Assembly (NCBI GenBank): GCA_000004695.1
Contig: CM000154.2
Location: forward strand, 2,624,001-2,688,000
Origin: Dictyostelium discoideum
Taxonomy: Eukaryota
Length of the DNA stretch: 64,000 nt
Direction of reading: 5' to 3'
Position numbers and translations under genes: made by a program. The notes below the pieces were generated by a model. The model did not search any database and was not told where the DNA came from. It saw nothing but the letters and a program-made list of their open reading frames with translations. Of this stretch, positions 1,144 through 49,274 are shown one piece after another. Position 1 is the stretch's first letter. Every line of letters starts with the position of its first letter.

Positions 1144-1198
<55 letters not shown>

Positions 1199-1514
1199 AA
1201 CAACAATAACTCAACAACCACAGGTGGATTTTAAAAATAGATTTATCAGTTGTGAGTTAAAAATAAAACAAATCAATTGTTTTATTATAATTCCACCAAA
1301 ACACACCCACCAAAAAAAAAAAAAAAAGTTGAAAATAATAAATAAAAAAACTAAGATCGTAAATTAATAGTTATTTTATTTTTTTATTTTACAACCAATT
1401 AAAAAAAAAAAAAAAAAAAAAATTTTATTCTTAATAAAAATAAAAAATAATTGTAAAATAAAATTGTATTAATATATATATAAAAATAAATAAAATATAA
1501 ATAAATAAAAGAAA

Positions 1515-4500
1515 ATGGAAGGTGTGGAAGATGATTTATCAAAATTATTAGAAGAATTATCATCAGGTGTTGTTTTAAATAATATTCAAGAGAAATTGAA
1601 TCAATCATCACCAAAGTTACAAAGTTTTATTGATGATGAAACTGGAAGTAATGCAGAAGATGTTAGAAGAGTGTTAGATGCAGCAACAGATACAGAGTCA
1701 AACTATGGTGGTGGAGCCAACTCAATTACAAATACACCAAATTTTAATTCTCATAGGGGACATCAACATCTTCAGCTTCATACAGAGTTATCATTAGATG
1801 CACTTAGACCAGTATCAGAGAATTCACCATTACACAAAAGTGCAACAAGACCAATCTCAACTTCTATTAGATTACCAAGATTAAGTGTTTGTGAGGATGA
1901 TAGTTCATCATCTTCTTCTTCATCCGATGGTGACTCTAATAGCTCATCAGATTCATCTGATAATTCATCAGAACAATCAGATGATGATGATGTTCATCTT
2001 CATCTTCATCTTCATCGTCATCATAGAAAAGTGAAAGAAGATGAAGGAGATTCATTTGAATCATCATCAGAATCATCAGAACAATATGGATCTCCAAGTA
2101 CTTTAAGAAGACAAGAAGCTTTAAAACTTGAAAAAATAATGCAAATTCAAGAGAAAAAGAAATTATTAAAAGAGAAATTAAAAGAACAAGATGAATTAGA
2201 ATTAAAAGAAAAACAAGAATTAAATGAAATTACAGTTCAAAAAGAAATAAAATTAAAAGATAAGTCAAATTCAGTTCAAAATGATATTGTTGATAGTGAT
2301 AATAATAATAATAATAATAATAATAATTCAATAACAATTGAAGAACAACAACAAGAAAAACAACAACAACAACAACAACACCACCACCACCATTCAACAC
2401 CAAATAAACCACCAAAATCTAGATCAGTTTCAATATCTACACCAGATTCAAATATTGTTGTTGCAGGTGGCAATGTAATTAGTAAAGAGAGAAAGAGATC
2501 AATTTTAGCATCATTTGAAGAGGGTTCACCAATGAGATCATCTTCAAGATTACCATCATCTAGAGGTGGTTCAATTAAAATCAAAGTTTCAAAGGTTTTA
2601 GAAGAAGAAATGCAACTTCAACAAGAATTTGAAAAACAAGAACAACTTAGACACTCTGCTAGATTAAGTCAATTAATTAGAGATTTAAATATGTCTTCAA
2701 ATTTACAAGATCAACAAGATCAACAATTAAGAAAAAATGAAAATAGTAATAACAACGAGGGTGATGATAACAATGAAAATGTTTCAAATGATAATAGTAG
2801 TGATAATGAAAATCAAAATATTAATGGTTCAATTTTAATTAAAGAAGAACAACAAGAAAAGATAGAAATAACTACAACCATAACAACTGTAATAACACCA
2901 CCACCACCAGCACAAGAACCACAACACCAACAACAACCAAAAATATTAACACCAGAAGAAGTAGAAGAAGAAAGAATTAGAGTATTAAGAATTGAAAGAA
3001 TGAAAGATCAAGTATTTTCACAATTGGATGAATTAGAGGATCCATTATATTCAAATGGAAGTAGACAACGTAATGGTGGTGGTGGTGGCGCATCAACAAG
3101 TGCAGAACCATCAATGATGCAAATTCCATTGACAAGATTAGAGGATACTGCATCATCATCATCATCACCAACATTACAAGCAACCAAAACAACTACAACC
3201 ACTACAACTACAACCACTACAACCACAACAGCAACATTACCAATAAATAATAAAAATTTAAATATTCAAGGTAGACCAAGAAAAGATTCAATTTCAGATC
3301 ATTGGGATATTGGTAGAAAAGAACAACCACGTCGTTCAATGACATTGAATATTCAAAGAGTTGGTGAGGACTTTTCAGTAAAGAAAGCAGAGGCAAAGAA
3401 AGTTAATCCTGATCTTGAAAAGATATTGGTACACATTTCATTGGTTGATCAATCTCACAAGGTTATTTGTATCACAGAGGATTTTACAGTTAAAGATGTT
3501 ATCGACCTCTTTTCCGAGAAATTAGGGTTAGTTCAAACTGAATTCTTTTCATTGGCAGAGGTTACATCGGATGGCTATGATAGATGGTTGGATCCAAATA
3601 GAGCGGTTAAAGAAGCTGGTATTAAAAACCTATCAAAGTTAACATTTAAAATCAAATATTTCAAACAACCAAAGAAGCTATCTGATAGTAAAGCAGTTCA
3701 TTTATACTATTTACAAATTCAACAATCCGTTGTAAATGGTACATACCCATGTTCAGAGGCAATGTCCTACAGATTAAGTGCACTTCAATTCTACATTACA
3801 TTTGGTGCATTCGATAAGGATAAACATATAGCAGGCTTCCTTGATCATGGTTCATTATCAGAGTTTATACCTTCAAACTTTTTCTTTGAACTCACTGATG
3901 AGGTCATTCAAAAACGTCTTTTCCATTTACATTCTCAAATTAAATGTAGTTCAAGTATTGAAGCAAAACTTAGATATTTAGATTTGGCAAATAAAATTCC
4001 AACCTTTGGTGTCACATCTTTCCAAGTTTTCGATGGTATTCGTGAATCATCAATCGTTAGACAAAAACGACATCTTTGTGTAGCTGAAGATGGTATCTTA
4101 ATCTCTAGAAAAGATAGAGCAGGTTATGATTTCTTTAGTTATAAAGAAATTATATCTTATCAAGTTACAACTAGAGGTTTAAAAATTCAAATTCCACATT
4201 CTTCAATAACTCCAAATGTAAATATATTTTTAAATCAAATAGTAACAAATAGTAATGTTACTAACATATTAATATTATTTTTATTATTTATTATTACTCT
4301 TATTATAGACATCAGAAACAATGAGTTTTGATACATCATCATATGATCAATCGAATAATATTATAGATTTAATGATGGGATATAAATATTTCATTCAACA
4401 TGATGAATTTATAAGAGGTATTGGTGCACCAGTTGAACAAGTTGATTTAAATATTTCTTTATTGTTACCATTATTTCAACCACCAAAAATTAGAACAAAG

Positions 4501-4782
4501 AGTGATCCACTTCGTAGTCGTTTAGAGTTATTCAAATTGAATTATCTTGGACTCTGTCAAAATTTCCATACAAAACCAATCTCAAAATTAATTGATCAAA
4601 TTGATTACATTCTAGATAAAGAAGGTTCATTTAGAAATCGTTTAGCATTTGAAAAAGTTGAATTACCATCTTTAAATTTAAGAGGTTCTGATTTATCTTT
4701 TATTGCTGATGCTTTAAAAGATACTTTAAATTTAATGTAATTATTATTATTATTTTTATTAGTGGTTAATTTACTTTATTAA

Positions 4783-4822
<40 letters not shown>

Positions 4823-5057
4823 TAGAATTGAAGAAGGTGAAAGTATTGTTGAAAATTTAAATATTTTATCATTAGATTTATCAAATAATCCATTATTGGC
4901 AACTGATGCATTTGAACCATTAAAAATTATTATGACTTGTAATACAATTATTCACTTAAATTTAAAGAATATAGGTTTATCAAATAAAGGTGTTATGGTA
5001 TGTATAATAATTTTTAATAATTTAATAATTTTTATTTTAATAAATTAAATATTAATT

Positions 5058-5152
<95 letters not shown>

Positions 5153-5736
5153 CCCCCTTAAAAAAATTTTTTAAAAAATTCCCAAATTTTAAAATTTTTA
5201 AATTTGGAAAAAAAAAATTTAAAAAACCGGGGGCCAAATTTTTTTTAAAAAAATTAAAAATTTTTTTGGGAAAATTTAAACCCTTTTTTTTTAAAAAACC
5301 CCTTTTCCCCCTTCCGGGGGGTTTATTTTTTTGAAAAATTTTTTCCAAAAAAAAAACCCCAAAAAATTTTAAATTTTTTAAAAAATTTTTCCCCAAAAAA
5401 GGGTTCCCCCCTTTTTTTCAAGGGTTTAAAAAAAAAATTTTTTTTTTTAAAAAACCCCCAAAAGGGGGGGAAAAAACCCCAANNNNNNNNNNNNNNNNNN
5501 NNNNNNNNNNNNNNNNNNNNNNNNNNNNNNNNNNNNNNNNNNNNNNNNNNNNNNNNNNNNNNNNNNNNNNNNNNNNNNNNNNTTTAAAATTTTTTTGCCC
5601 TTTGAAAAAGTTGAATCCCCTCTTTTAAATTTAAAGGGTTTGGATTATTTTTTAAAGGGGAAGGCTTTAAAAAAACCTTTAAATTTAAGGGAAAAATAAT
5701 AATTTTTTTTAAAGGGGGGAAATTCCCTTAAAAACC

Positions 5737-5774
<38 letters not shown>

Positions 5775-6010
5775 TAAAAATTAAAAAAGGGAAAAGATTT
5801 TTTAAAAATTTAAAATTTTTTCCCTTGATTTTTCCAAAAAACCCCTTTTGGCCCCTTAAGCCTTTTGACCCCTTAAAAATTTTTTTGCCTTTTAAACCAA
5901 TTTTCCCCTTAAATTTAAAAAAATAGGGTTTTCCAAAAAAAGGGGTAAGGGAAGGGAAAAAAATTTTTAAAAATTTAAAAATTTTTTTTTTAAAAAATAA
6001 AAAATAAAGG

Positions 6011-6088
<78 letters not shown>

Positions 6089-7367
6089 AAATAATAATAA
6101 TAATAGCCGTTAGTAACAATTATTGAAAAATATCCAAATATTGAAACATTACAAATTGGTAAGAATAGAGTTAATGAATCAGGTGTCAGAGTTATTTTAA
6201 GAGCAATTAAGAATTTTAATGTAAAGATTGAAACACTTGGATTTGAAGAAACCAATTTAACCGATTCAGGTTGTTTAATTATTGATAAACTTTTATCAAA
6301 TAATAAAACCATAAAGAATTTAAATATTTCTAAAAATCTTATCACTGAAGAAGGTTTTCATCATATATTCGAAGGTATTAAAAGAAATAGTCTTAGTTTA
6401 CAAGATCTCAATATAAGTGGTAATAAAATCAATAGTAAACTTATGATTAAATTCATTAAATGGTTAGCTTCAAGTGAAACTTCAATCATAACTTTAAATA
6501 TTGCTAAAACTGGTTTAGAATCTTCATTTGGTGCTGAACTCCAAAAATTCTTGGTTGGTAATAGTTGTCATATTAAATCTTTGGATACTTCTTATAATGA
6601 TTTGGGTACTTCTGGTACTAAAAATGTTATCAAAGGTATTATCAATAATCAAACCATTACAGAGTTATCACTTTGTGCTAATAAAATTAGTTCAAGTGGT
6701 TGTAATGATTTATGTCAATCTTTGGAATTAGCTTCTGCAACTTGTTCAAAATTATATTTACGTCATTGTGGTTTAGGTTCAAGTTCATTAGTTAGAATTG
6801 CAAATATGTTAGAACTAAATAAAACTATTACAACTTTAGATTTATCAATGAATGAATTTTCTGTAAGTAAAAAAAAAAATAAAAAAATAATAATAAAAAT
6901 AATTAATAATAATTAATATTAATCATTATTTATTTATTTATTTATTTTTTAAAAAGAAATCTTCATCAAGTGCAATTGGAACAATGTTAGAAAAAAATGA
7001 AACACTTCAAGAGTTTTATTTAGCAGATTCAAGTTTAGGTGCAAGAGAAGTTGAATCTATTTTGAATGGTTTAAAGAATAATTCAACAATTAAAAAAATA
7101 TTTTTAGATACCAATCCGATTGGTAAAAAAGGTATTTCATCACTTGCAAATATGTTAAATACAAATACAGGATTGGAAGTAATAACATTAAGACACACAA
7201 ACTTAAATGGAAAAGATATTTTAGAATTATTAAAACAATTATCTACAAATATCCCAATTAAAATCATTAATTTAACTGAAAATACTTTAGATAAAATCAC
7301 TCCACAAATTAAAAATGCAATTAATGATCAAATTAAAAGACTTCATACAATCAATATTCAATATTAA
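1515..7367 (+). CDS. Large multi-exon gene for a protein with an N-terminal low-complexity region, a FERM domain, and ribonuclease-inhibitor-type leucine-rich repeats. Proposed CDS is join(1515..4217, 4309..4736, 4826..4997, [intron containing assembly artefact], 6107..6862, 6957..7367).
   Basis: The 938-aa ORF 1515..4331 carries a FERM signature (ILVHISLVDQSHKVICITEDFTVKDVIDLF..; HLYYLQIQQSVVNGTYPCSEAMSYRLSALQFYITFGAFD; PH-like C lobe LCVAEDGILISRKDRAGYDFFSYKEIISYQVTTRGLKIQ). Donor GTAAAT at 4218 and acceptor AG at 4307-4308 join in frame to ORF 4321..4740. Donor GTAATT at 4737 and acceptor TTTTAG at 4824-4825 give an LRR exon (IEEGESIVENLNILSLDLSNNPLLATDAFEPLKII..NLKNIGLSNKGVM) that ends at donor GTATGT at 4998. 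Acceptor AATAG at 6105-6106 opens a long RNI-like LRR exon (PLVTIIEKYPNIETLQIGKNRVNESGVRVILRAIKNFNVKIETLGFEETNLTDSGC..). Donor GTAAGT at 6863 and acceptor AAAAAG at 6955-6956 lead to the final exon, which ends TINIQY then TAA at 7365-7367. Phases are consistent at every junction. The 4998..6106 interval contains low-quality sequence and an N gap. Confidence 0.7.
5044..6100. other. Low-quality, mis-assembled stretch that includes the N gap 5483..5582. It is made of homopolymer-inflated sequence and a degraded duplicate of 4640..5000.
   Basis: 5583..5960 reads as a base-stuttered copy of the upstream exon and intron. For example 'gccctttgaaaaagttgaatcccctcttttaaatttaaagggtttgg' corresponds to 'gcatttgaaaaagttgaattaccatctttaaatttaagaggttctg', and 'cccttaaatttaaaaaaatagggttttccaaaaaaaggggtaaggg' corresponds to 'cacttaaatttaaagaatataggtttatcaaataaaggtgttatgg'. 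5050..5480 consists of poly-T/poly-A with ccc/ggg stutters. Confidence 0.8.
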
Positions 7368-7993
7368 TTTTTTTAAAATTAATAATTACACACACATATA
7401 TAAAATTTAAATATATAAAAATATAAACGTATACAAATATAATAATAAATATAATAAATAATAAACTATATTTTTTATTTTTTATTTTTTTTATAAAATA
7501 ATCCAGATTTAACTCATTTATTTTTTTAATTTAAATTAAATTTTATCCCACTTTTTTTTAAAAAAAAAAATTGAAATAAATATAAAAAAAAAAAAAAAAA
7601 TAAAAATAAAATAGGAAAAGAAATGATTTTTTTTTTTTTATAAAAAGAACCAGATATGTGTTTTATTTTGAATAGATCTTGAATAACTTGAGAGAGGATG
7701 TGTTGGCGAAAACAAGAAGCACCACGAGTAGGTCCATCCACTTTGCTTCTCAAAAATTAATTAGTTAAAATATTTAAATTGTAAACTTTAATTTTAAAAT
7801 CTTTTTGAAAATAGAGATGGTTGGAAATAAATAAATAAATAAATAAATTAATAAATCTAAAAAATGGGAGCAAGAAGAAAATGGGAAATCTATTTCTATA
7901 ATATGGCGACACGCTGCAAGCTTTTTCACTTCCTTTAATTTCTTTTTTCTTTTTTTTTTTTTTTTTTCTTTTGTTAAAAACTTTTAAAAAATA

Positions 7994-8440
7994 GGTAATA
8001 CTCTGGAATTACAAATATTCTAATTAGCACATTTACACCACAATAATAAATTAATATTATATAATTGTGGTTTTTTTTTTTAAACTTGTTTAAAAAAAAA
8101 AATGTAAATGAGGAGTGGTCAGTCGTTCCTTAATTAGGTTGAGAGCACATGTCTGGCTCTCCAACTTTCCCACTTTAACTGATCACAGCACTAATTAATC
8201 ATTAATTAAATAATCAATTAATTAAAAGATTTGGCTTCAAATGACCTGAGTACAAAGAAAATTTAAAAGAATTTAAACATCTACATATCCTATAAAAAAT
8301 TTAATAATTTTTTTTTTTTTTTAAATAGAGATTTCTAAAGAAAAAAAAAATATATCTATAAAATATAGGTGTGATGTTTTCTTTTTATGATTCTTTGGAG
8401 TAAAAATCTTTTTATTACTCTTTTAACCCTATTTTTAAAA
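7994..8440. repeat. Copy 1 of a ~430-450 bp dispersed/direct repeat of unknown type, either a possible ncRNA gene or a degenerate mobile-element fragment.
   Basis: It shares the following blocks with 9494..9915: 'ggtaatactctggaattac..ctaattagcacatttac', 'gtaaatgaggagtgg(t/c)cagtcgtt(t)ccttaattagg..catgtctg..ttccaactttcccactttaactgatcacagcactaattaatcatt', 'ggcttcaaatgacct(g/a)agtacaaagaaaatttaaaagaatttaaacatctacat' and 'gtgtgatgt(a/t)ttct..ttatgattctttggagtaaaaatctttttattactcttttaaccct'. Identity is about 90% with indels. Confidence 0.6.
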
Positions 8441-9493
8441 ATGATAATAGTAAAAAAAAATATGGATAACTTTATAAACTTGGAAATAAAAATTCGTTTT
8501 TACCTATAATAAAAGAGAAAGAGATAAAAAGAGAATTTAAAAAAAATTAGTACATACTTTTTTTTATATTTATTTATTTATTTAGGTATTTTATTTATTA
8601 GAGAATATTTTTTTTGGCTATTTATATTAAAACCTTTTTAATATAATAGTAAATCGATACTAAATAATATTATTTTAAAATGAACATTTAAAAAAAAAAA
8701 AAAAATAATGGTATTAAAAATAAAAAAAAAATAAAAAAAAATAACAAAAAAAAAAAAAAAATAAAATAAAATAAAAATATATTTAAATAAAAATAGAAAA
8801 TAAAAATAAAAATAAATTTCAATGGTTAATTGTGACAAAAAATCCTATTACCCCCATTTGGTAATGTAAAAATTTTTTTTTTTTTTTTTTTTTTAATGTA
8901 GAAATAAAAGATAAAAGGGTGTGATAAAAAAAAAAAAAAAAAAAAAAATTAAAAATTAAAAAAAAATTAATGGAATACAACATTCAAATCAAATTTTTAT
9001 AAGATAATAAAATTAAATTTAATTATCAGCCACCCCTAAGGGGTGTTTTTGTTTTTTTTTTTTTTTTTTTATTGTAAGAGATATTATTTTAAAGTAACCA
9101 AAAATATAATTATTAAATAATGTTTAACTTATTTAATTTATTTTTTTAATGAAATAGAGTTAATTTTGGAGTCCATAAAAACTGCCCATATAAAATAAAT
9201 AAAAAAAAAAATAAAAATAAAAATAAAAAACCTATAAACTCTCAAGAGTTTTACTCCATACTTGTATAATTAAAAATAAAGAATAAAAAAAAAAAAAATT
9301 TTGGATTTTATGAGATGGAAATTTTATTAAAAATAAGAGAGTCCCTATTCCTAAAAAAAACAATTAACGGTCAATAAATATTTACTTGAATGAGAGGTTT
9401 TCCTTTTTTTTTTTTTTTTTTTTTTTTTTGTTTGTATTAATTAAATTATTTTTTTTTTTTTTTTTTTTTTTGTTTTTTTATTGTTTAAAAAGA

Positions 9494-9915
9494 GGTAATA
9501 CTCTGGAATTACTATATTCTAATTAGCACATTTACTCTACAAAAATGATTAAATGATTGTAGTTTTTTTTTTTTTTTTTTTTCATTTAAAAATAAAAAAA
9601 AAAAAAGTAAATGAGGAGTGGCCAGTCGTTTCCTTAATTAGGATGAAAATACATGTCTGATTTTCCAACTTTCCCACTTTAACTGATCACAGCACTAATT
9701 AATCATTAAATAATTTAATGAAAGACTTTGGCTTCAAATGACCTAAGTACAAAGAAAATTTAAAAGAATTTAAACATCTACATAACATAAAATATTATTA
9801 ATTTCACTCTAAATTAAATAAAAGTAAAAAACAATAATAATTATAGTAGTGTGATGTATTCTCTTTATGATTCTTTGGAGTAAAAATCTTTTTATTACTC
9901 TTTTAACCCTCTTTT
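9494..9915. repeat. Copy 2 of the same repeat, in the same orientation and offset by exactly 1,500 bp.
   Basis: See copy 1. The sequence outside the ~450 bp blocks is not duplicated. Confidence 0.6.
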
Positions 9916-10492
9916 AAATAATAATAGTTAATAAAAAAAAACACATTATTTGTACATATTTGACCTAAAATTAAAAAAATGAAGAAAGAGAAAAAAAAAA
10001 AAAAAAAAAAATGGAAATTAGTAAATTTAATTTATAAACTAAAAAAAAAATACCTTTTTAATAATCTCTCTCTCTTTTTTTTTAATTGACTCTTGCTTGT
10101 TTGTCAAATAAAAAATAGTTAAAATGAAAAAAAAAAAAAAACATTTATTGTGATATAAACTTTCTCTTTTTTTTTTTTTTTTTTAATTTTATTTTAATTT
10201 TATTTTAATTTTTCTGTTTTTTATTTTTTTATTTTTTTTTTTTTTTATTTTTTGTTATTTTTTTTATAATAACAATGATATTATCGCCACCACACATCTC
10301 CTTTGGGAAATTTAAATTAAAATAAAAAAAAAAATAAATAAAAAAAATCTTTTTCATAAATATCTTTTTTATTTTTATTTTTCTGTTTTTATTTTTTTTT
10401 TTATTTTTTTTTTATTTTTAATTATTTTTATTTTAAATTTTTTTTTTTTTTTTTTTTTTTTAATCTTATCTTTCACCAATTAAAATGTGATC

Positions 10493-11507
10493 TTATTTTT
10501 TAACAATTTGAACAATATCTTCATCTGCTAAAACGTGATCCTTACCACAACGTTGAGGGTTATGTTTAGCTGAAGAACCCCAAACCAAAGCACTAAATTA
10601 AAATTAAAAAATAATAAATATTAATAAATTAATAATTATATTTATGATAATAATAAAATAATAATAATAAGCAATAATGATTTCATTTGTGTGGTGTATT
10701 TTTTTTTTTTTTTTTTTTGTGTGTGGTAATGGTAGTTGAGTGTGTATTTAAGTGTGTGGATAAAAATTAAATTTTTAAAAAAAAAAAAAAAAAACTTACT
10801 ATCTAAATTGTCTAATAATTGAATTATGAATATGATTACAAAAAGTTTCAATTGAAGCTTCTTCACCACCTCTAATGACGACTGGTTCATTGTAATCTGG
10901 AATGAGACCTTTTGGTTTAGTGTAAACTCTAATCAATTTTAAGTATTCCCAAATTTTATCGAGGAGGGCATCTAAATTCCATTCCAAATGAGAAGAGATT
11001 GGAACATAATGAGGAATTTTATCTAAAAGGTCCAACTCTTCGATAGAGATAGCATCGATCTTATTTAAAACGTAAATACATGGAACGTAGATACGATTGC
11101 CTTCAATGACATCGATGAATTCATCCACTGTACAATTTCCACGTAAAATCACATCTGCATTGTGAATTTTATATTCTGCACAGATTGCTTTCACAGTTTC
11201 ACTATCCAATTGGGTTGGATTGACATTTGGTGTATGTGAAAAGTTAATACCACCCTTCTCCTTCTTTTTGAATGTGATTGGTGGTGGTTGTTTATTCAAT
11301 CTAATACCAAAACCATCCAACTCTCTCTCTATAATCTTTTTATGTACCAATGGTTTCATTGCATCCAATACAATTAAAATAAGATTACATGTTCTACCAA
11401 CTGCAATAACTTGTCTACCTCTACCTTTACCATCTTTTGCACCTTCAATAATACCTGGTAAATCTAATAACTAAAATATATATATTATATATATTAATTT
11501 CAATTTA

Positions 11508-11541
<34 letters not shown>

Positions 11542-12111
11542 TTAAAATATATATTATAATATACTTACTTGAATTTTAGCACCTTTATAATTAATTACAC
11601 CAGGAATACATGTTAAAGTTGTGAATTCGTATGAGGCAACTTCAGATGAGGTACCAGTTAATTTAGTTAATAAAGTTGATTTACCAACTGATGGGAAACC
11701 AATTAAACCAACACGAGCATCACCTGCTTTTGATACATCGAAACCTTCACCTGCACCTGCTGCTGCACCTTTACTTGGTCCTAACAATAATTCTCTTTTA
11801 TATTTTGCTAATTTTGCTTTCAATACACCTAAATGAAAGCTTGTAGCTTTATTTTTTTGGGTACGAGCCATCTATTTATATTTATATATTTATTTTATTG
11901 ATTGATTGATTGATTGGGTTAACATTTTATTCTAAAATAATTTATTTCTTATTTATCATCACTTCCACTATATTGATTGTGTAATATTTCAAATTTTAAA
12001 TTCCATTCTCATTGTAATTGAAGCAAAAGTGATGAATTAATCTGTAAAAAAAAAAAAAAAAAAAAAACTTACCTCATCCTCGACCTCTTTGATTTTTTGT
12101 ACAAGACTCAT
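10493..12111 (-). CDS. drg1: Developmentally regulated GTP-binding protein (DRG family, DRG1-like Obg-type GTPase with a TGS domain). CDS is complement(join(10493..10592, 10800..11470, 11569..11871, 12073..12111)).
   Basis: Exon 1 encodes [13 protein letters not shown] and ends at donor GTAAGT. Exon 2 (ORF 11554..11871) encodes [49 protein letters not shown] (the G1 P-loop)..[18 protein letters not shown] and ends at donor GTAAGT. Exon 3 encodes [46 protein letters not shown] and ends in phase 2 at GTAAGT. Exon 4 starts after an AG acceptor at 10593-10594 and encodes [33 protein letters not shown] followed by TAA. This is the canonical DRG C-terminus, and the total is about 370 aa. The paralogue call (DRG1 rather than DRG2) rests on remembered motifs in the middle and C-terminal regions. 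Confidence 0.85.
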
Positions 12112-12934
12112 TCTGTATTATATATTTTCTCCCTATATATTGTATAAACTAAAACCTAATTAATTAAAGTTATTTCGATTTAGAAAGGATGTTCTATATA
12201 TATAATTGGAAACGAAAAAAAAAAAAAATAAAAAAAAAATGAAAAAAAAAAAAATTGAAAAAAATTTTAAAAAAAAATAAAAAAAAAAAAGTGAAAATGC
12301 AAAAAAAAAAAAAAAAAAATAAAAAAAAACTAAACAAATAATTTTTGATTTAATGTCAATTCCAATTGGAATTTTTAATATTTATTCATTTGTTTATTTT
12401 CATTTATTACTTTCCATATTATTTATTTGAAATTTTTTTTTTTTAAAAAAAAAAAAAATTTAAAATATGATTTTAATTTATTTGATAAATTTTTTTTCCA
12501 ATTTTATTCAAACTTTTTTTTTTTTTATAGTTTTATTTTTTTGTACAATTTTATTCATCTAAAAGTATTATTATTATTTTCTGATTTTTAATTCTAAAAA
12601 AATATTTTTAAAAAAAAAAAAAAAAAAAAAAATTTAATAAATAAATGAAAAAAAAAAAAAAGATATAAAATAAAAAAATTAAATAAATAAATGAAAAAAA
12701 AAAATAAATAAATGAAAAAAAAAAATAATTTGCATTGATTGTTGCCCCCTAAAACTTTTTAAATCTAAGTTTGTGTTTTTTATTATTGGGGGAGAAGAAA
12801 AAAAAAAAAAAAAAAAAAAATTAAAAATAAAAATAAAAAAAAAAAAAAAAATTAAAAATAAAAAAGAATGGTCATAGAAGATCTTTTTTCCTCCAATAGC
12901 ACCATCTCATTTTTTTTCGCTTTTTTTTTTTTTT

Positions 12935-12983
<49 letters not shown>

Positions 12984-13045
12984 GTTTTTATCAATTTTTT
13001 TTTTGCATCAAAGGCGAGATTTTATTATTGTATGCAGTGCAATGA

Positions 13046-13079
<34 letters not shown>

Positions 13080-13677
13080 CTTATTATAATAATAACAACG
13101 CAAGGTAATTAATTAATTTTAACCATCCATTCAAATAACAGGCAGAAATAAAAAAAAAAAAATAAAATAAAAATAAAAATAAAAAAAAAAAAAAAAAAAA
13201 AATATCGACTGGTAAAAAAAAAAAAAAATAAATAAATAAATAAAAAAAAAAGTAGTAGTAACCCTTTTTCATTAAAATTTGAATAAAAAAAAAATAAATG
13301 AAAAAGAATTACTCTTCACCCATAACCACCTTTTTTTAAAATATTACTTCCACATTGCCCACAAAAAAAAAAAATAAAAAAAAAAAAAAATAAAATAAAA
13401 TAAAACTTAAATTATACATTACCACAAAAAAAACAAAAAAAAAAAGTAAAAATAAACAAAACAATAAATCATTAATAATAAAAAAAAAAAAAAAAAAAAA
13501 GGATTTATTTTTTTAAAAATCTGTGCTTTAGTTTTCAAAAAAAAAAAAAAAAAAATTAAAAGGAATTAAAAAAAAAAAAAATTTGGAGGTGGCCATTTTT
13601 ATTTCGGGTCTATGGGTAAACCCCTCTTTTCTCTCAAAATTTTTTAATAATAATTTTTAAATCCTTTTGGAAAAAAT

Positions 13678-16602
<2,925 letters not shown>

Positions 16603-16647
16603 AAATATTTCATTGAAAATATAAAATTATTTATAATTTTATAAGTA

Positions 16648-16686
<39 letters not shown>

Positions 16687-16826
16687 ATTTAAAAAAGATA
16701 AAAATAAATATTTTGATTTTAAAAAAATATCATTATATTTTACTTTTCTTTTTAAATTTATCATGTTTTTTTATTTATTTATTCATTTATTTATTTATTT
16801 TTATTAATTAATTTAATCTCAAATTA

Positions 16827-16857
<31 letters not shown>

Positions 16858-16945
16858 AGATTTAATAAATAAAATAGATTTTAAAATTCTGAACATTTGC
16901 TCTATACAAAATATATATTATATACAAAAAAACGTAATTTATTTT

Positions 16946-16983
<38 letters not shown>

Positions 16984-17021
16984 CAGTTTGGTTTGGGGTT
17001 TTTATTTAAAATATTATAAGG

Positions 17022-17573
17022 TTAAATTTCATTAGGAAGCGAAAACAACGAAGAAATATCGTAATTGATATAGTTATTTTGATCTGTTGAAACTGAAGGT
17101 GTTGATTGTGATAAAGGTGTAGTTAAATGGTGATGAGTTTGATGAATATGATGATTTATAGTGCCAGTGGTAGAAGCTGACATATTTGGAGTTGGGATAT
17201 TGTTGTTGTTGTTGTTGTTATTGTTATTATTATTGTTATTGTTATTGTTATTGGTTGTGGTGGTTGTAGTATTTAAATTATTAGGTTGAGTTGGATGATA
17301 AGGTAAATGACTCATTTGAGCATGTTCTTGTTTAATATGTTGATGTTGTTGTAATGGTTGTATCCTATGTTGATTATCATCAAAGAGTAAAAAATCGTTA
17401 TTGTTTTCAATTGTATAAGTATTGGTTGTATTATCAGAAGGAATCAATGTTTGGGAACCAGATGTGGATGACCCCCAATAGTCATAATAGTATGGTACCT
17501 CGTGTGGTTCAATTGGGTGACTATTTGAGAATGTTGTATCCGTATTATTACTATTGACTTGTGAATTATTAGT

Positions 17574-17614
<41 letters not shown>

Positions 17615-17796
17615 GATGTTGGTTATGTGTAGTATTTATATGTTGTTGATGGTGTTGAACTTGTTGTGGATGATGTTGTTGAGCTTGTTGTGGATGATGT
17701 TGTTGTTGGTGGTGTTGTTGTGATAGTTGTTGTTGGTAATGTTGTTGCATTAATTGATATTGTTGTTGATATTGTTGATGTTGTTGCATTAAATAT

Positions 17797-17867
<71 letters not shown>

Positions 17868-18063
17868 GGCTTGTTGTTGTTGTTGATAATGATGTTGTTC
17901 CATTGAAGATTGATTTGGTATGATATTTACAGATGTTGAAGAAGGCATTGAAGGTTGTTGAAGATGGAATTGTTGAAATTGTGCATTTTGAATTTGTTGA
18001 TCAATTGGTAATTGTTGAATATGAGGTTGTTGAGAAATAACAGGCATTTGTTGTTGTTGAATA

Positions 18064-18106
<43 letters not shown>

Positions 18107-19521
18107 GCTGTTGTTGTTGTTGTTGTTGTAATTGTTGTTGAGTTTGTTGTTGAGTTTGTTGTTGAGTTTGTTGTTGTTTTGAATTTTTTGGAGATTGTGG
18201 CACTTTTTGTTTGTCATGTGTCTTTTTGGAAGAAAGAGATGGTGAAGAATTTGGGGTTGTTTGAGCCCTAATTATTTTTGGTGCAACCAAAGGTTCATTG
18301 GTTGTTATTGCTGTATTGGTATTACTACTATTGTTATTATTGTTATTATTGTTATTATTATTATTAATACTATTGGTACTATTTGTACTATTATTTAAAT
18401 TATTTGTAGAGGTTGTTGTACTACCAGAGAGTGCAAAAGGTGGAATATTTGATTTTTCAGAAGAATTTGTTGTAGTAGTTGTAGTAGTTGTTGTTGTTGA
18501 AGAGGAAGATTGATATAAAGATATTGGAGATAAAACTGGAGAACTACCATCCTCTGCATCTTCATCGTCATCGTCGTCATCATCTTTCTCTTTGTTTAAA
18601 GATTTTGAATCACCACCAATTTTTTTGAGTAGGGTAGAATTCCAATGATTTTTAATTGCATTTGCAGGTCTACCATCCAACATTTTAGAGATTGCAGTCC
18701 ATTTATTACCCAACGAAGCGTGAGCATCAATGATAATTTTATCCTCTTCAGGGGTCCAATTTGTTTTTCTAACCTCTGGTGAGAGATGATTGAACCATCT
18801 CTCTCTGCATTGTTTACCGATTCTACCGGGTATTTTAGCTGCTATTGAAGACCATTCCTTTGGTCCACATTTATTAACCAACTCTACCAATTTTGCATCC
18901 TCTTCATCCTTCCAAGGTCCCTTAACTATACCAGGACTAGAAGGTTTACCATTGTCTTTACTGGTTGTAGATTGCCATCTCTCCTCTGAATTTTGATATT
19001 TACTCTTACTGCTACTTCTGCTGTTTTTACTCTTTTTAGATGGTGACATTGGTGCTGAGCACGGCCCCAATGAAGGTGACATACTCAATGGAGTTGATGG
19101 TGCTGATAACGATGCATTTGCAAATGCCATTTGCATCGAAGTTAAACCAGGTGATGCTGATAATGGTGTTAAAAGTGGTGATGACACCAATATTGGTTTC
19201 AAACTATTATTGTTACTCATTAAATATTCATTGGTTAAATTGGATGTTGGTTGTCCAACACCCATATCCTCCTCTAGTTTTCTTTTACTTCCCATCATTG
19301 GTGATAATATTTGCTGTTGTTGTTGTTGAGTTTGTTGGTGATGATGATGATGTTGTTGTTGGTGATGATGTTGCTGTTGTTGTTGTTGTTGTATATTTTG
19401 TGGTTGAGATGATAATGTTGGTGTTAATGGTGTTAATGAAGTTGTAATGGAGGGTGGAATCATAGAAGTAGATGTCGTACTCTCTCCGTAATTTTGTTGT
19501 TGTTGTTGTTGTTGCTGCTGC

Positions 19522-19576
<55 letters not shown>

Positions 19577-19751
19577 GCTGTTGTTGATGATGGTGATGTT
19601 GATGTTGATGTTGATGATTTTGGTTAATATTATTATTATTATTGTTGTTATTATTGTTATTATTATTGTTATTATTGTTATTATTATTATTACTATTGTT
19701 GTTCGTTGTCATGATCATATAATGCCCCCCTGTGGATCCACAATACAACAT
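17022..19751 (-). CDS. R2R3 Myb-domain DNA-binding protein, 909 aa, single exon, rich in poly-Q and poly-N.
   Basis: There are two consecutive Myb repeats: GPWKDEEDAKLVELVNKCGPKEWSSIAAKIPGRIGKQCRERWFNHLSP and VRKTNWTPEEDKIIIDAHASLGNKWTAISKMLDGRPANAIKNHWNSTL. The ORF is continuous. The exact start is uncertain; MLYCG.. at 19751 and MIMTTNN.. are both possible. Confidence 0.8.
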
Positions 19752-19825
19752 TTTAGTAAATTGGTTTTTTTTTTTATTGTTATTATTTTTATTTTATAAA
19801 TAGTTTTATTATTAGTTTGTTGGTA

Positions 19826-19895
<70 letters not shown>

Positions 19896-20144
19896 GTTAT
19901 TTGAAAAAAAGGGTAAAAAAAAAAAAAATTGAAAATTTAAAAAAAAAAAAATAAAAATAAAATTAAATAATTTGAAAAGATTTTTTGGTTAATATATATA
20001 TATATATAAATATTTAATTTATTGAGATTTAGTATGTATATGTGTTATTGTTTGAAAAAAAAATAAAACAATAAAAAAAAAAATAAAAAAATAAAAAAAA
20101 AATAAAAATTAAAAAAAACATAAAAAAAGAGAAAATTTAAATTA

Positions 20145-20244
20145 NNNNNNNNNNNNNNNNNNNNNNNNNNNNNNNNNNNNNNNNNNNNNNNNNNNNNNNN
20201 NNNNNNNNNNNNNNNNNNNNNNNNNNNNNNNNNNNNNNNNNNNN
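20145..20244. other. Assembly gap, a run of 100 N.
   Basis: Run of N. Confidence 0.99.
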
Positions 20245-20376: not shown

Positions 20377-20945
20377 CTTTGTGAAAATTAATACACAATT
20401 TTAAAATATTAAAAGAATTAAAAAAATTAAAATAATAATGAAATGAACGAGATTAATCAAAAAAAAAAATAAAAAAATAAAAAAACAAAAAAAAAAAATA
20501 ATATAATATTTAAAAAAAAATTATTACCTATTTACTAGAATAACGATAATAATAATATACTAATAATAGTAATTAATAAAGGTGAACTTTTTATACTATT
20601 ATTATTATTATATTTTTATTTTTATTTTTTCCTCCTTTGTATTGATATTAATATAATGAAACAATTCTTGTTATTTGTGTTATTGCTATTGTTTTTTTTT
20701 TTTTTTTATTGCGATATCTTTTTTATTGTGTTAAATTCTCATAAAATGAAGTCTATTATTAGATTAGAACTATTAATTAATTTTATATTAAGGAATTATT
20801 TTTTTTTTTTTTTTGGTTTTGTTTATTATTCCCTATTTATTTTATTTTAAAACAGAACTTTATTTTAATTTAATTTTATTATATTTATTATTTTAATTTA
20901 TTTTTATTTTTTTTTTTTTTTTTTTTTTTGAAAAACACTATAGAG

Positions 20946-48361: not shown

Positions 48362-49274
48362 ATGAAAAATGGTTTTTTATTTTTAACGATAATTTTATTA
48401 TTATCAATTTTCATTACATTTTCAAATTCTCAAAATTTGTCAAATTTGGAACAAAATTGTTTGACGAATTTGGGAAATAAAATTTCGAAATATAAAGATC
48501 CAAATTCATGGTGTTCCTCTTTTTCTTGTGCTCTTTCAGCTGATTCATCAAATTTATATATAGAAACATTAAAAATTGAAAACACAAATGGAGTCACAGC
48601 AGCTTTAAATTACACTGACTTTAGTTGTTTCTCTAATTTGACAAAATTGTAATTATTGACTTTTTATTTTAATTTTTATTATTTTTACTATATTACTAAT
48701 AAAATTCTTTAAATAGAGATATTACTCATTATACCTTAAACTATAGTTCCTTTTTTGGTGATATTTCAGAAAAAGGCTTGGCAGGTAAGTAACACTTTAA
48801 ATAATTAATTAAAATAAAAAAAGACAATATTAATAGATTTTTAAATAATTTAATTATAGTTTCAATTGTTTTAAATCAAACCTTTAATTTTGATTTCCCA
48901 AAATTGGTAAACTTTCCAACAACTTCATTGTATGTATTTTTAAAAAAATATATATATATACTCAATTTCATGATCAAACAAAATATTAATATTAATTAAT
49001 TCATAAAGAGAATTTGTTTTGGCATATACACCAGGTACTATTGGACAATTTAATGCAAGTTCTTTTGGAAATTTAAAATCATTAATTTTCACCACCAATC
49101 CTCTACTACCATCAATTCCAGCATCAATGACTCTTCCCACTTTATACAACGACTTAAATTCAAACCAACAGATTCAATTAGATAAATTTCGATTTGTGAC
49201 CAGACAAGTTCCAAATCTTAATTATTTTAACATTACTGAATTGTATGTACATTTGTTTATTCCAAAAATATAAG

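Follow-up and report, generated by a model that had tools for sequence, protein, structure and literature searches.

The window analysed is a 64-kb stretch of Dictyostelium discoideum chromosome 5 (chr5:2,624,001-2,688,000; window-to-chromosome offset 2,624,000, anchored on two annotated genes that match exactly in length and strand). Its interval 7368-10492 is bordered by two convergent genes, a FERM/LRR gene with the stop codon at 7365-7367 and a DRG GTPase gene with the CDS end at 10493. A sequence-only reading had described the interval as a 3.1-kb gap free of ORFs, and the longest ORF on either strand is indeed a low-complexity frame of 75 aa with a TTG start. The gap is, however, not empty, since each of two published plus-strand lncRNA models located there holds one copy of a repeat pair; the interval is thus transcribed. 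Coding exons or a micropeptide in the repeats are ruled out by stop codons in all frames and by 1-nt frame-shifting indels between the copies inside conserved blocks 1 and 2. Exact-protein look-ups with the small ORFs 7526-7753 (-) and 8387-8509 (+) and with the DRG exon ORF gave no match, and that with the Myb ORF led to a second D. discoideum assembly (GCA_054883475.1); protein searches, made against a database apparently without dictyostelid sequences, yielded nothing above 69% identity for the DRG exon and a single match (38%) for the FERM segment.

The lncRNA models were located via Files S4 and S6 of Rosengarten et al. (2017; G3 7:387; PMC5295588) after coordinate mapping. According to the searchable text of that survey, its models come from strand-specific, rRNA-depleted RNA-seq, an intergenic lncRNA is an intergenic transcript model of at least 200 nt, and the detection bar was low (at least 2 reads; median maximum 1 RPKM). 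Both models are intergenic, longer than this minimum and without substantial coding potential, except that the 5' end of model 1 overlaps the last 68 nt of the FERM/LRR CDS. The FERM/LRR locus was evidently not counted as a gene by the survey, because DDB_G0289311 is named there as the left-hand neighbour. Model 1 could be a 3' extension of the FERM/LRR mRNA, and copy A could then lie in read-through or in a long 3' UTR, because the model starts inside the last FERM/LRR exon. A T22 run (8876-8897) is found 38 nt upstream of the start of model 2.

Table 1. Coordinates of transcript models, neighbouring genes, repeat copies and structural elements.
Feature	Position in window	Position on chr5	Strand	Remarks
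lncRNA model 1, DDB_G3972875	7300-8700	2631300-2632700	+	1400 nt; Rosengarten 2017 File S4; contains copy A
lncRNA model 2, DDB_G3969847	8935-10291	2632935-2634291	+	1356 nt; Rosengarten 2017; contains copy B
DDB_G0289317		2634493-2636111	-	DRG gene
DDB_G0289319	17022-19751	2641022-2643751	-	Myb ORF
Repeat copy A, full blastn extent	7935-8460		+	structured core 7982-8441
Repeat copy B, full blastn extent	9441-9937		+	structured core 9484-9918
P1 closing helix, 5' strand, copy A	7982-7995		+	UUUUAAAAAAUAGG; pairs with 8428-8441
P1 closing helix, 3' strand, copy A	8428-8441		+	CCUAUUUUUAAAAA; copy B equivalent 9908-9918
Conserved block 1	7994-8040; copy B 9494-9539		+	90% identical
Variable segment 1	8041-8099; copy B 9540-9602		+	small hairpin, then U-run/A-run hairpin; z -3.1 to -4.2
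Conserved block 2	8100-8212; copy B 9603-9709		+	most GC-rich part (36%)
Covarying hairpin in block 2	8141-8161; copy B 9645-9665		+	loop ACAUGUCUG invariant
Long hairpin, copy A	8250-8399		+	150 nt; 48-49 bp; z -4.0 (+), -5.1 (-)
Long hairpin, copy B	9747-9879		+	133 nt; 44-46 bp; z -2.15 (+), -4.8 (-)
Invariant small hairpin in block 4	8397-8420; copy B 9877-9900		+	GGAGUAAAAAUCUUUUUAUUACUC; seen in both copies

Extent, divergence and folding of the repeat pair

The two copies are paired by blastn in direct orientation with E=1e-130, in agreement with the sequence-only reading, whose quoted sequence strings are all present in the interval; neither blastn nor nhmmer revealed a third copy within the 64-kb window. 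The location given there for the copies holds, but the extent was too short, as homology reaches about 50 bp further left and about 20 bp further right. The identity, put at about 90%, was measured as 80.3% over 533 aligned columns and is strongly uneven along the alignment, amounting to 90% at 7990-8040, 85% at 8100-8212, 92% at 8229-8290 and 94% at 8369-8438, while the AT-rich segments between these blocks are 67%, 69% and 53% identical, which is near the level of unrelated AT-rich DNA. The exact 1,500-bp phasing claimed for the pair is true at the left edge only; the offsets from copy A to copy B are 1500, 1499, 1503, 1504, 1497 and 1480 bp, and because of this variation the phasing is not a feature. 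A larger repeat unit of 1.5 kb was considered and rejected, the flanks outside the copies showing no detectable similarity beyond low complexity.

Both copies are base-for-base identical in the independent assembly GCA_054883475.1, which differs from the interval by four homopolymer-length changes and 2 SNPs (9030 and 10435), all outside the copies; an assembly duplication is therefore excluded and the duplication is real. It is not the recent segmental duplication once suggested, since unconstrained segments have diverged to near-random identity, from which it follows that the duplication is old and that the blocks were held constant.

Folding of each copy alone gives the same closed multi-hairpin architecture, comprising a closing 5'/3' helix, a small hairpin beside a U-run/A-run hairpin, a GC-richer branched module, a long hairpin and an invariant terminal hairpin. 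Comparison of the minimum free energies with those of dinucleotide shuffles gave whole-unit z-scores of -5.4 (+) and -6.6 (-) for copy A and -2.7 (+) and -5.0 (-) for copy B, and values from -2.2 to -5.1 for sub-hairpins; the 150-nt windows of the interval with z of -3 or lower are located mostly in the two units, the exceptions being 8920-9069 and 10180-10329, which contain paired A and T runs. The unit termini are complementary in both copies over 9 bp (in copy A, 7987-7995 with 8428-8436), or over 13 bp with one bulge. In block 1, CAUUUAC(A/U) at 8030-8037 pairs with (U/A)GUAAAUG at 8103-8110. The sequence of variable segment 1 has diverged, yet both copies keep both of its hairpins, the stem of the small one being CCACAAU..AUUGUGG in copy A and CUACAA..UUGUAG in copy B. 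Block 2 includes a 51-nt run (8160-8210) without any difference between the copies, which carries the DUSE-like 9-mer TCCCACTTT at 8168-8176, and a hairpin that reads GAGAGC-ACAUGUCUG-GCUCUC in copy A and GAAAAU-ACAUGUCUG-AUUUUC in copy B. The base of the long hairpin is composed, in copy A, of block 3 (8229-8290) and the 5' half of block 4 (8369-8397); its sequence is conserved between the copies, and the apex (8291-8368 in copy A) is unrelated between them, yet paired in both.

The minus-strand folds are more stable (-105 vs. -96 kcal/mol for copy A, -96 vs. -77 kcal/mol for copy B) and contain more G-U pairs than the plus-strand folds. This higher stability is an awkward fit with plus-strand transcripts. 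A choice of strand from G-U pairs was attempted and abandoned, the counts of broken pairs being similar on both strands and the energies alone favouring minus.

Compensatory base changes

The sequence-only reading had named compensatory changes between the folded copies as a check, and such changes are found: five base pairs in three separate helices have changed on both sides with pairing kept, where 0.19 would be expected in this single pairwise comparison of two sequences. Structure prediction from a single copy leaves the count at 4-5 doubly changed, still-paired pairs against the same expectation of 0.19. At 7992/8431 in P1, a T-A pair of copy A corresponds to G-C in copy B (9492/9911), at 8037/8103 an A-T pair of copy A corresponds to T-A in copy B, and the block 2 hairpin contributes three doubly changed pairs (8143/8159, 8145/8157 and 8146/8156); the strands of the compensated helices are separated by 439, 66 and 13 nt, respectively. 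These five pairs take up 10 of the 21 block substitutions, and no random placement of the 21 (0/20,000 permutations) reached the observed compensation. Broken pairs number 3-6, against about 10 expected, and controls with slid partners gave 0-2 compensated pairs vs. 8 in the real structure. One template switch could account for all three changes in the block 2 hairpin, in which case the independent events would number three, not five.

Known RNA classes, mobile elements and transcriptional noise

A search of the whole window with Rfam 15 at gathering thresholds found no match, and at E of 10 or lower, applied to the interval and to each unit, all hits were far below the cut-offs and none was common to both copies; the named ncRNA classes that the sequence-only reading had entertained are thus represented by no family at or near threshold. 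No tRNA was predicted by ARAGORN. Likenesses to hammerhead, U7, SRP, RNase P/MRP and telomerase RNAs seen by eye are unsupported by Rfam and were treated as chance. Class I RNAs (Rfam RF01414; Kjellin et al. 2021), which measure 42-65 nt and carry an 11-nt motif, with a DUSE some 60 nt upstream, resemble the core as Dictyostelium-specific ncRNAs with a 5'/3'-joining stem and a structure conserved above sequence. The core does not have the features that define them; it is about 450 nt long, has no Rfam match, and its 9-mer is merely DUSE-like, the DUSE consensus [AT]CCCA[CT]AA being absent from 7368-10492.

The sequence-only reading had named a snoRNA-like RNA as one option and pointed to a C-box-like TGATGT, which is present at 8372 and has no D-box partner. 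The sole box C/D-like pair consists of AUGAGGA (8108-8114; one mismatch to RUGAUGA) and CUGA (8179-8182), found on the plus strand of both copies. Block 2 might accordingly be read as a plus-strand box C/D snoRNA of about 75-80 nt within each lncRNA, the adjacent hairpins serving as RNase III entry sites that release it. The boxes are 75-76 nt apart in both copies and lie on the transcribed strand, the 18 nt upstream of the putative D box are invariant, and the variant C box AUGAGGA was accepted for the validated orphan snoRNA OR8; known D. discoideum snoRNA genes (Aspegren 2004; Diesend et al. 2022) are likewise intergenic, sometimes duplicated or clustered with nearby paralogues (CD11a/b), have boxes 50-100 nt apart and have been proposed to undergo RNase III processing. 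Nevertheless, this assignment appears very unlikely. None of the 47 validated box C/D snoRNAs of Diesend et al. (2022), defined by snoScan and at least 100 RNA-seq reads, lies in chr5:2,624,001-2,688,000, although a candidate with such box scores would have passed had its reads numbered 100 and its 5' end been distinct; the published snoRNA probes of that study have no match in the window either. The first three bases of the C box (8108-8110) are buried in the covarying helix 8030-8037/8103-8110, the possible terminal stem has 2-3 bp at best, and an internal covarying hairpin is atypical of the class; boxes free to form a k-turn beside a short terminal stem and a discrete expressed RNA of 66-113 nt are thus not seen here. 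Rfam snoRNA models scored far below threshold and belonged to different families in copies A and B. The conserved unit has six times the length of a box C/D snoRNA, and blocks 1, 3 and 4 would be left unexplained.

An LTR or a fragment of a known transposon had also been considered. Two direct repeats of about 500 bp around about 1 kb of non-coding DNA would suit the LTRs of a degenerate LTR retrotransposon or TRIM with the internal region 8461-9440, but the probability of this is close to negligible: the units start with TTTTAAAAAATAGG and end with CCTATTTTTAAAAA, not with TG..CA; no tRNA-complementary or TGG-type PBS follows copy A (8460); a pyrimidine-/T-rich tract stands on the plus strand before 9441 in place of a polypurine tract; flanking direct repeats or target-site duplications are absent; the internal region has no ORF and 4-25% GC in 100-nt windows; each copy is situated mid-way in its own transcript model; and the divergence is block-wise (85-94% vs. 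53-69%), with half of the block substitutions in compensated pairs. A small non-autonomous element of about 460 bp (MITE, foldback or SINE-like), inserted twice or duplicated and transcribed incidentally, with selection acting on an active master element (e.g., on its RNA or terminal inverted repeats) and not on a host function, would agree with the size, the AT-richness, the strong folding potential and the complementary termini, as well as with the A9 run that adjoins the end of both copies, and two subfamily members of a structured retroelement would be expected to show covariation too. It is still judged unlikely, as the D. discoideum DNA searched (the window and one overlapping locus) holds no further copy, neither copy has a visible target-site duplication, the collections searched, apparently without dictyostelid DNA, gave no match, and the same orientation, the 1.5-kb spacing and the two similar-sized transcripts fit tandem gene duplication better than two insertions; the block-wise conservation with covariation is a further difference from MITE, foldback and TRIM elements. 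In these collections, a metagenome scan with CCCACTTTAACTGATCACAG returned 0 matches and one with GATTCTTTGGAGTAAAAATC returned 3 matches, 21-28 nt long and attributed to chance, in unrelated contigs with 31-51% GC. No D. discoideum repeat family of such size and shape is known to have been described.

The absence of any RNA function is, in the present assessment, quite unlikely; the similarity would then result from patchy gene conversion between the adjacent duplicates or from a lower mutation rate of complex than of homopolymer-rich sequence, the hairpins would be DNA palindromes kept by template switching, and the transcripts would be low-level noise or read-through. The AT-rich spacers do consist mostly of slippage-prone homopolymer runs, template switching can mimic compensatory changes in local inverted repeats, the threshold for lncRNA detection was very low, and the documented plus strand is not set apart by its folding energies. 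On the other hand, conversion tracts would need to skip three spacers of 16-78 bp, and partners 439 nt (7992/8431) and 66 nt (8037/8103) apart are hard to ascribe to local template switching. Nearly half of the block substitutions fall in compensated pairs while the 51-nt stretch has none, and the hairpin apices are wholly different in sequence and both still paired.

Proposed origin and role of the shared core

The locus probably represents two tandemly duplicated plus-strand lncRNA genes of about 1.4 kb each that share one structured core of about 450 nt under selection. The suggestion that the copies are related elements, and perhaps members of an ncRNA gene family, finds support, since each copy lies in a published plus-strand model and the copies differ by compensatory pair changes. 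An ancient tandem duplication may have copied one lncRNA gene together with its promoter, in a unit of about 1.5-1.6 kb, after which both copies would have drifted to near-random similarity, sparing a domain of about 450-470 nt. Pairing kept by two-sided changes in three helices argues for selection on the RNA fold, and such selection would make the core the functional part of the transcripts.

The Dictyostelium lncRNA models that consist of anonymous read pile-ups and show no sign of function number in the hundreds, and it is by evidence such as two-sided pairing changes that a functional structured RNA can be told from transcriptional noise. The two loci, which are intergenic, ORF-less and richer in GC than the surrounding intergenic DNA, were already catalogued by Rosengarten et al. 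(2017) as anonymous Cufflinks models, and the searchable text of that paper is silent on paralogy, a shared core, structure and covariation; newly seen are the old paralogy, the retained core and the helices kept by two-sided changes. Literature searched by the two identifiers contained no mention of them in other papers, and literature searched by sequence string contained nothing relevant.

The cores could, with rather low probability, be founders of an undescribed dictyostelid family of structured ncRNAs of about 450 nt that serve a regulatory role or form a dedicated RNP; each would be built from a closing helix, a three-way junction, a single-stranded segment of 51 nt that is invariant and a hairpin with a variable apex, and would be distinct from generic lncRNAs, miRNA precursors and transposons. 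If so, they would be among the few protist lncRNA loci with direct evolutionary evidence of a selected fold. Finding the fold in other dictyostelids would establish a novel ncRNA family in an organism that serves as a model of multicellular development; many genomic copies would mean an overlooked small mobile element.

Given two lncRNA genes with a shared core, the nuclear RNase III DrnB with RbdB may, as a low-confidence guess, act on the long hairpin and perhaps also on the hairpins beside it; the lncRNAs would then be small-RNA precursors that yield miRNA-like products or release the block 2 module. The core may alternatively act as a protein-binding scaffold. With 44-49 bp, the long hairpins are long enough for a duplex of about 21 nt. 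None of 13 published miRNA sequences that were compared maps to the window (0/13), and neither arms nor blocks occur among the hairpins and reads listed in the supplement of Liao et al. (2018). The D. discoideum pri-miRNAs of mir-1176, mir-1177 and mir-7097 (Liao et al. 2018; Meier et al. 2016) are Pol II-type transcripts of intergenic origin in which a long poly-T tract immediately precedes the start and a long hairpin is embedded; similarly, T18-T26 runs precede the repeat units, the T22 run precedes model 2, and each unit has one hairpin of 133-150 nt with a conserved base. In contrast to these pri-miRNAs, the conserved part of the units far exceeds a miRNA duplex and includes the branched GC-richer module and the closing helix.

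Divergence of the two repeat copies

Self-BLAST of the window pairs 7935-8460 (copy A) with 9441-9937 (copy B) in the same orientation (80.3% identity over 533 columns, E=1e-130), which confirms that the two repeat copies are related; neither self-BLAST nor a profile search of the 64 kb reveals a third. The independent Dictyostelium discoideum assembly GCA_054883475.1 has the two copies without any change, its only differences from the window in the interval 7368-10492 being two SNPs (9030 and 10435) and four changes of homopolymer length, and this recurrence argues against a duplication created by misassembly. The four conserved blocks are listed in the table; the three intervening segments (8-12% GC) have identities of 67%, 69% and 53%, approximately the level of unrelated AT-rich DNA, and the flanks beyond the copies show no similarity above low complexity. 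Since the copies are the same in a second assembly and their spacers have diverged to a nearly unrelated level, the duplication is real and old, not recent as the sequence-only reading had proposed in one of its options. The 1,500-bp phasing described there holds for the left edge only, the gapless block offsets being 1500, 1499, 1503, 1504, 1497 and 1480 bp; the earlier observation is real, but it was imprecisely described.

Features of the interval and its surroundings (window positions; A and B are the repeat copies)
Feature	Position	Strand	Remarks
Assembly gap 1	5483-5582		100 N, within FERM/LRR gene
FERM/LRR stop codon	7365-7367	+	left flank of interval 7368-10492
DRG coding-sequence end	10493	-	right flank of interval; convergent with FERM/LRR
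Assembly gap 2	20145-20244		100 N; ~958 bp in newer assembly (L001 8649-9606)
Model 1, DDB_G3972875	7300-8700	+	chr5 2631300-2632700; 1400 nt; Rosengarten et al. 2017 supplementary tables
Model 2, DDB_G3969847	8935-10291	+	chr5 2632935-2634291; 1356 nt; same source
Block 1	7990-8040		A vs B 90% identical
Block 2	8100-8212		85%
Block 3	8229-8290		92%
Block 4	8369-8438		94%
Closing helix (copy A)	7987-7995 with 8428-8436		joins both ends; predicted fold
Small hairpin and adjacent U-run/A-run hairpin			enclosed by CAUUUAC/GUAAAUG; predicted fold
Branched module, GC-richer	block 2		predicted fold
Long hairpin, 133-150 nt	base in block 3 and first half of block 4		predicted; apex sequences unrelated between A and B
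Small hairpin, invariant	8397-8420		predicted fold
Compensated pair	7992/8431		T-A in A, G-C in B
Compensated pair	8037/8103		A-T in A, T-A in B
Compensated pairs	8143/8159, 8145/8157, 8146/8156		GAGAGC...GCUCUC (A), GAAAAU...AUUUUC (B); loop unchanged
TCCCACTTT sites	7546-7554, 8168-8176, 9672-9680 (+); 13909-13917 (-); 49135-49143 (+)		first three in interval

Predicted fold and covariation of the core

Folding copies A and B separately, on either strand, gives the same architecture (see table). Against dinucleotide shuffles, whole units (repeat copies) reach z-scores of -5.4 (copy A) and -2.7 (copy B) on the plus strand and of -6.6 and -5.0, respectively, on the minus strand, and the 150-nt windows of the interval with z <= -3 fall mostly inside the two units, the exceptions being two paired A-run/T-run stretches (8920-9069 and 10180-10329). 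Within lncRNA model 2, the sequence CACCCCUAAGGGGUG at 9032-9046 makes a GC-rich hairpin without mismatches, and a T run comes after it; with the A and T runs on its flanks included, the local folding z is approximately -3. The only SNP nearby, at 9030 (T instead of C in GCA_054883475.1), is just outside the hairpin.

The compensatory changes that the sequence-only reading proposed to look for were found, with 10 of the 21 block substitutions making up five double-changed pairs in which pairing is kept. As a control for circularity, the structure was predicted from a single copy; it contains 4-5 compensated pairs against 0.19 expected, a number reached in 0 of 20,000 random placements, and 3-6 broken pairs against approximately 10 expected. 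The consensus structure contains eight compensated pairs, which fall to 0-2 when the partners are slid by 1-3 columns. Should one template switch account for all three changed pairs of the one stem, the number of independent events would still be three, spread over helices with strand separations of 13, 66 and 439 nt. This single pairwise comparison of sequences provides good evidence that the pairing is under selection. Counts of broken pairs do not discriminate between the plus and minus strands. The minus-strand folds of the units 7990-8438 and 9490-9918 are stabler than the plus-strand folds by 9-19 kcal/mol, and G-U pairs are 2-3 times commoner in minus-strand folds of longer cores (7980-8448, 9483-9928); both copies thus have their stabler fold on the strand opposite to that of the published, plus-strand transcript models.

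Transcript models and the kind of element

The interval contains no ORF longer than 75 aa, in agreement with the sequence-only reading, but it is not empty, as two already catalogued, uncharacterised lncRNA loci are located there (models 1 and 2), with copy A in the middle of the former model and copy B in the middle of the latter. The models derive from rRNA-depleted, strand-specific libraries and lenient lncRNA criteria (at least 200 nt and at least two reads, without a coding filter), and the median maximum lncRNA abundance was 1 RPKM (Rosengarten et al. 2017). Their starts are 1635 bp apart and their ends 1591 bp apart, a spacing that fits one complete lncRNA gene duplicated in tandem. Model 2 has a T22 tract of its own 38 nt upstream of its start, an arrangement (poly-T, then start) that is described for Dictyostelium Pol II promoters, those of pri-miRNAs among them. 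Model 1 also includes, upstream of copy A, GC-richer islands at 7640-7760 and 7860-7930 (up to 40% GC), which hold short minus-strand ORFs (75 and 51 aa) and have neither a counterpart upstream of copy B nor significant structure.

Comparison of the copies indicates that the two loci are old paralogues, whose sole retained part is a core of approximately 450 nt with a conserved, covarying predicted fold; the paralogy and the covarying core are new here, the lncRNA loci themselves being already catalogued. The element is rated as a structured lncRNA or a precursor. The sequence-only suggestion of a small-RNA family was not borne out by Rfam, which gave no match in the whole window at gathering thresholds and only weak sub-threshold matches that are not common to both copies. 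No tRNAs were found, two metagenome scans returned chance matches only, protein-database searches yielded no relatives from dictyostelids, exact-protein look-ups of small ORFs gave no match, and the interval has no match to the consensus of DUSE, the upstream promoter element of Dictyostelium small-ncRNA genes. The 9-mer TCCCACTTT, present five times in the window against 0.59 expected, resembles DUSE but fails its consensus; block 3 starts approximately 62 nt downstream of it in both copies. The transcribed strand has a conserved box C/D-like pair (AUGAGGA 8108-8114, CUGA 8179-8182), but a box C/D snoRNA is unlikely, as the putative C box has its first three bases inside a covarying helix and the 47 validated snoRNAs (snoScan plus expression) are all located outside the window. 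Likewise, the 13 published mature miRNA sequences that were compared with the window have no match in it, and the blocks do not appear among the hairpins listed by Liao et al. 2018. Coding sequence is ruled out by stop codons in all frames and 1-nt indels within blocks 1 and 2.

The copies lack TG..CA termini, PBS, PPT, a target-site duplication and uniform divergence, and are very unlikely to be LTRs; a small structured mobile element of another kind is a less probable alternative to the lncRNA reading. A different explanation concerns copy A, which could be part of a long 3' extension of the FERM/LRR mRNA, because model 1 begins 68 nt within the FERM/LRR coding sequence and this locus was evidently not counted as a gene by the survey, which gives DDB_G0289311 as the left neighbour. 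The omission was likely due to the 100-N gap and the poor sequence around it (~5040-6100), which is stuttered and of low quality, including T74 and T75 runs; the newer assembly has a 1489-aa product annotated at the locus. By the preferred guess at function, RNase III (the nuclear enzyme DrnB and its partner RbdB) would have the long hairpin as a substrate, perhaps together with the hairpins on either side, and the lncRNA transcripts would then be precursors.

Genomic placement and neighbouring annotations

The Myb ORF of 909 aa (17022-19751, -) agrees in strand and length (2730 bp) with DDB_G0289319 (chr5 2641022-2643751, -), and the DRG GTPase gene matches DDB_G0289317 (chr5 2634493-2636111, -) in the supplementary tables of Rosengarten et al. 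2017, which places the window at chr5:2,624,001-2,688,000 in the same orientation. In GCA_054883475.1 the Myb ORF is unchanged, and locus L001 is 99.4% identical to window 6972-20144. The window is nuclear DNA of D. discoideum, and its ORFs contain the poly-Q and poly-N tracts typical of this species.

A published lncRNA model of 450 nt (20465-20915, +; chr5 2644465-2644915) adjoins gap 2 and has no similarity to the repeat units. Two minus-strand "lncRNA" models (1190-5024 and 6105-7507; Rosengarten et al. 2017) overlie the plus-strand FERM/LRR ORFs and are split at gap 1; they may represent either genuine antisense transcription or strand-switch shadows cast by the mRNA of a gene then unannotated. 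The 337-aa DRG model in GCA_054883475.1 appears to end at approximately window 10843, so that the last exon, encoding the C-terminal end (region 10493-10842; L001 ~18910-19260), would be missing from it; the dictyBase model DDB_G0289317 ends at 10493.
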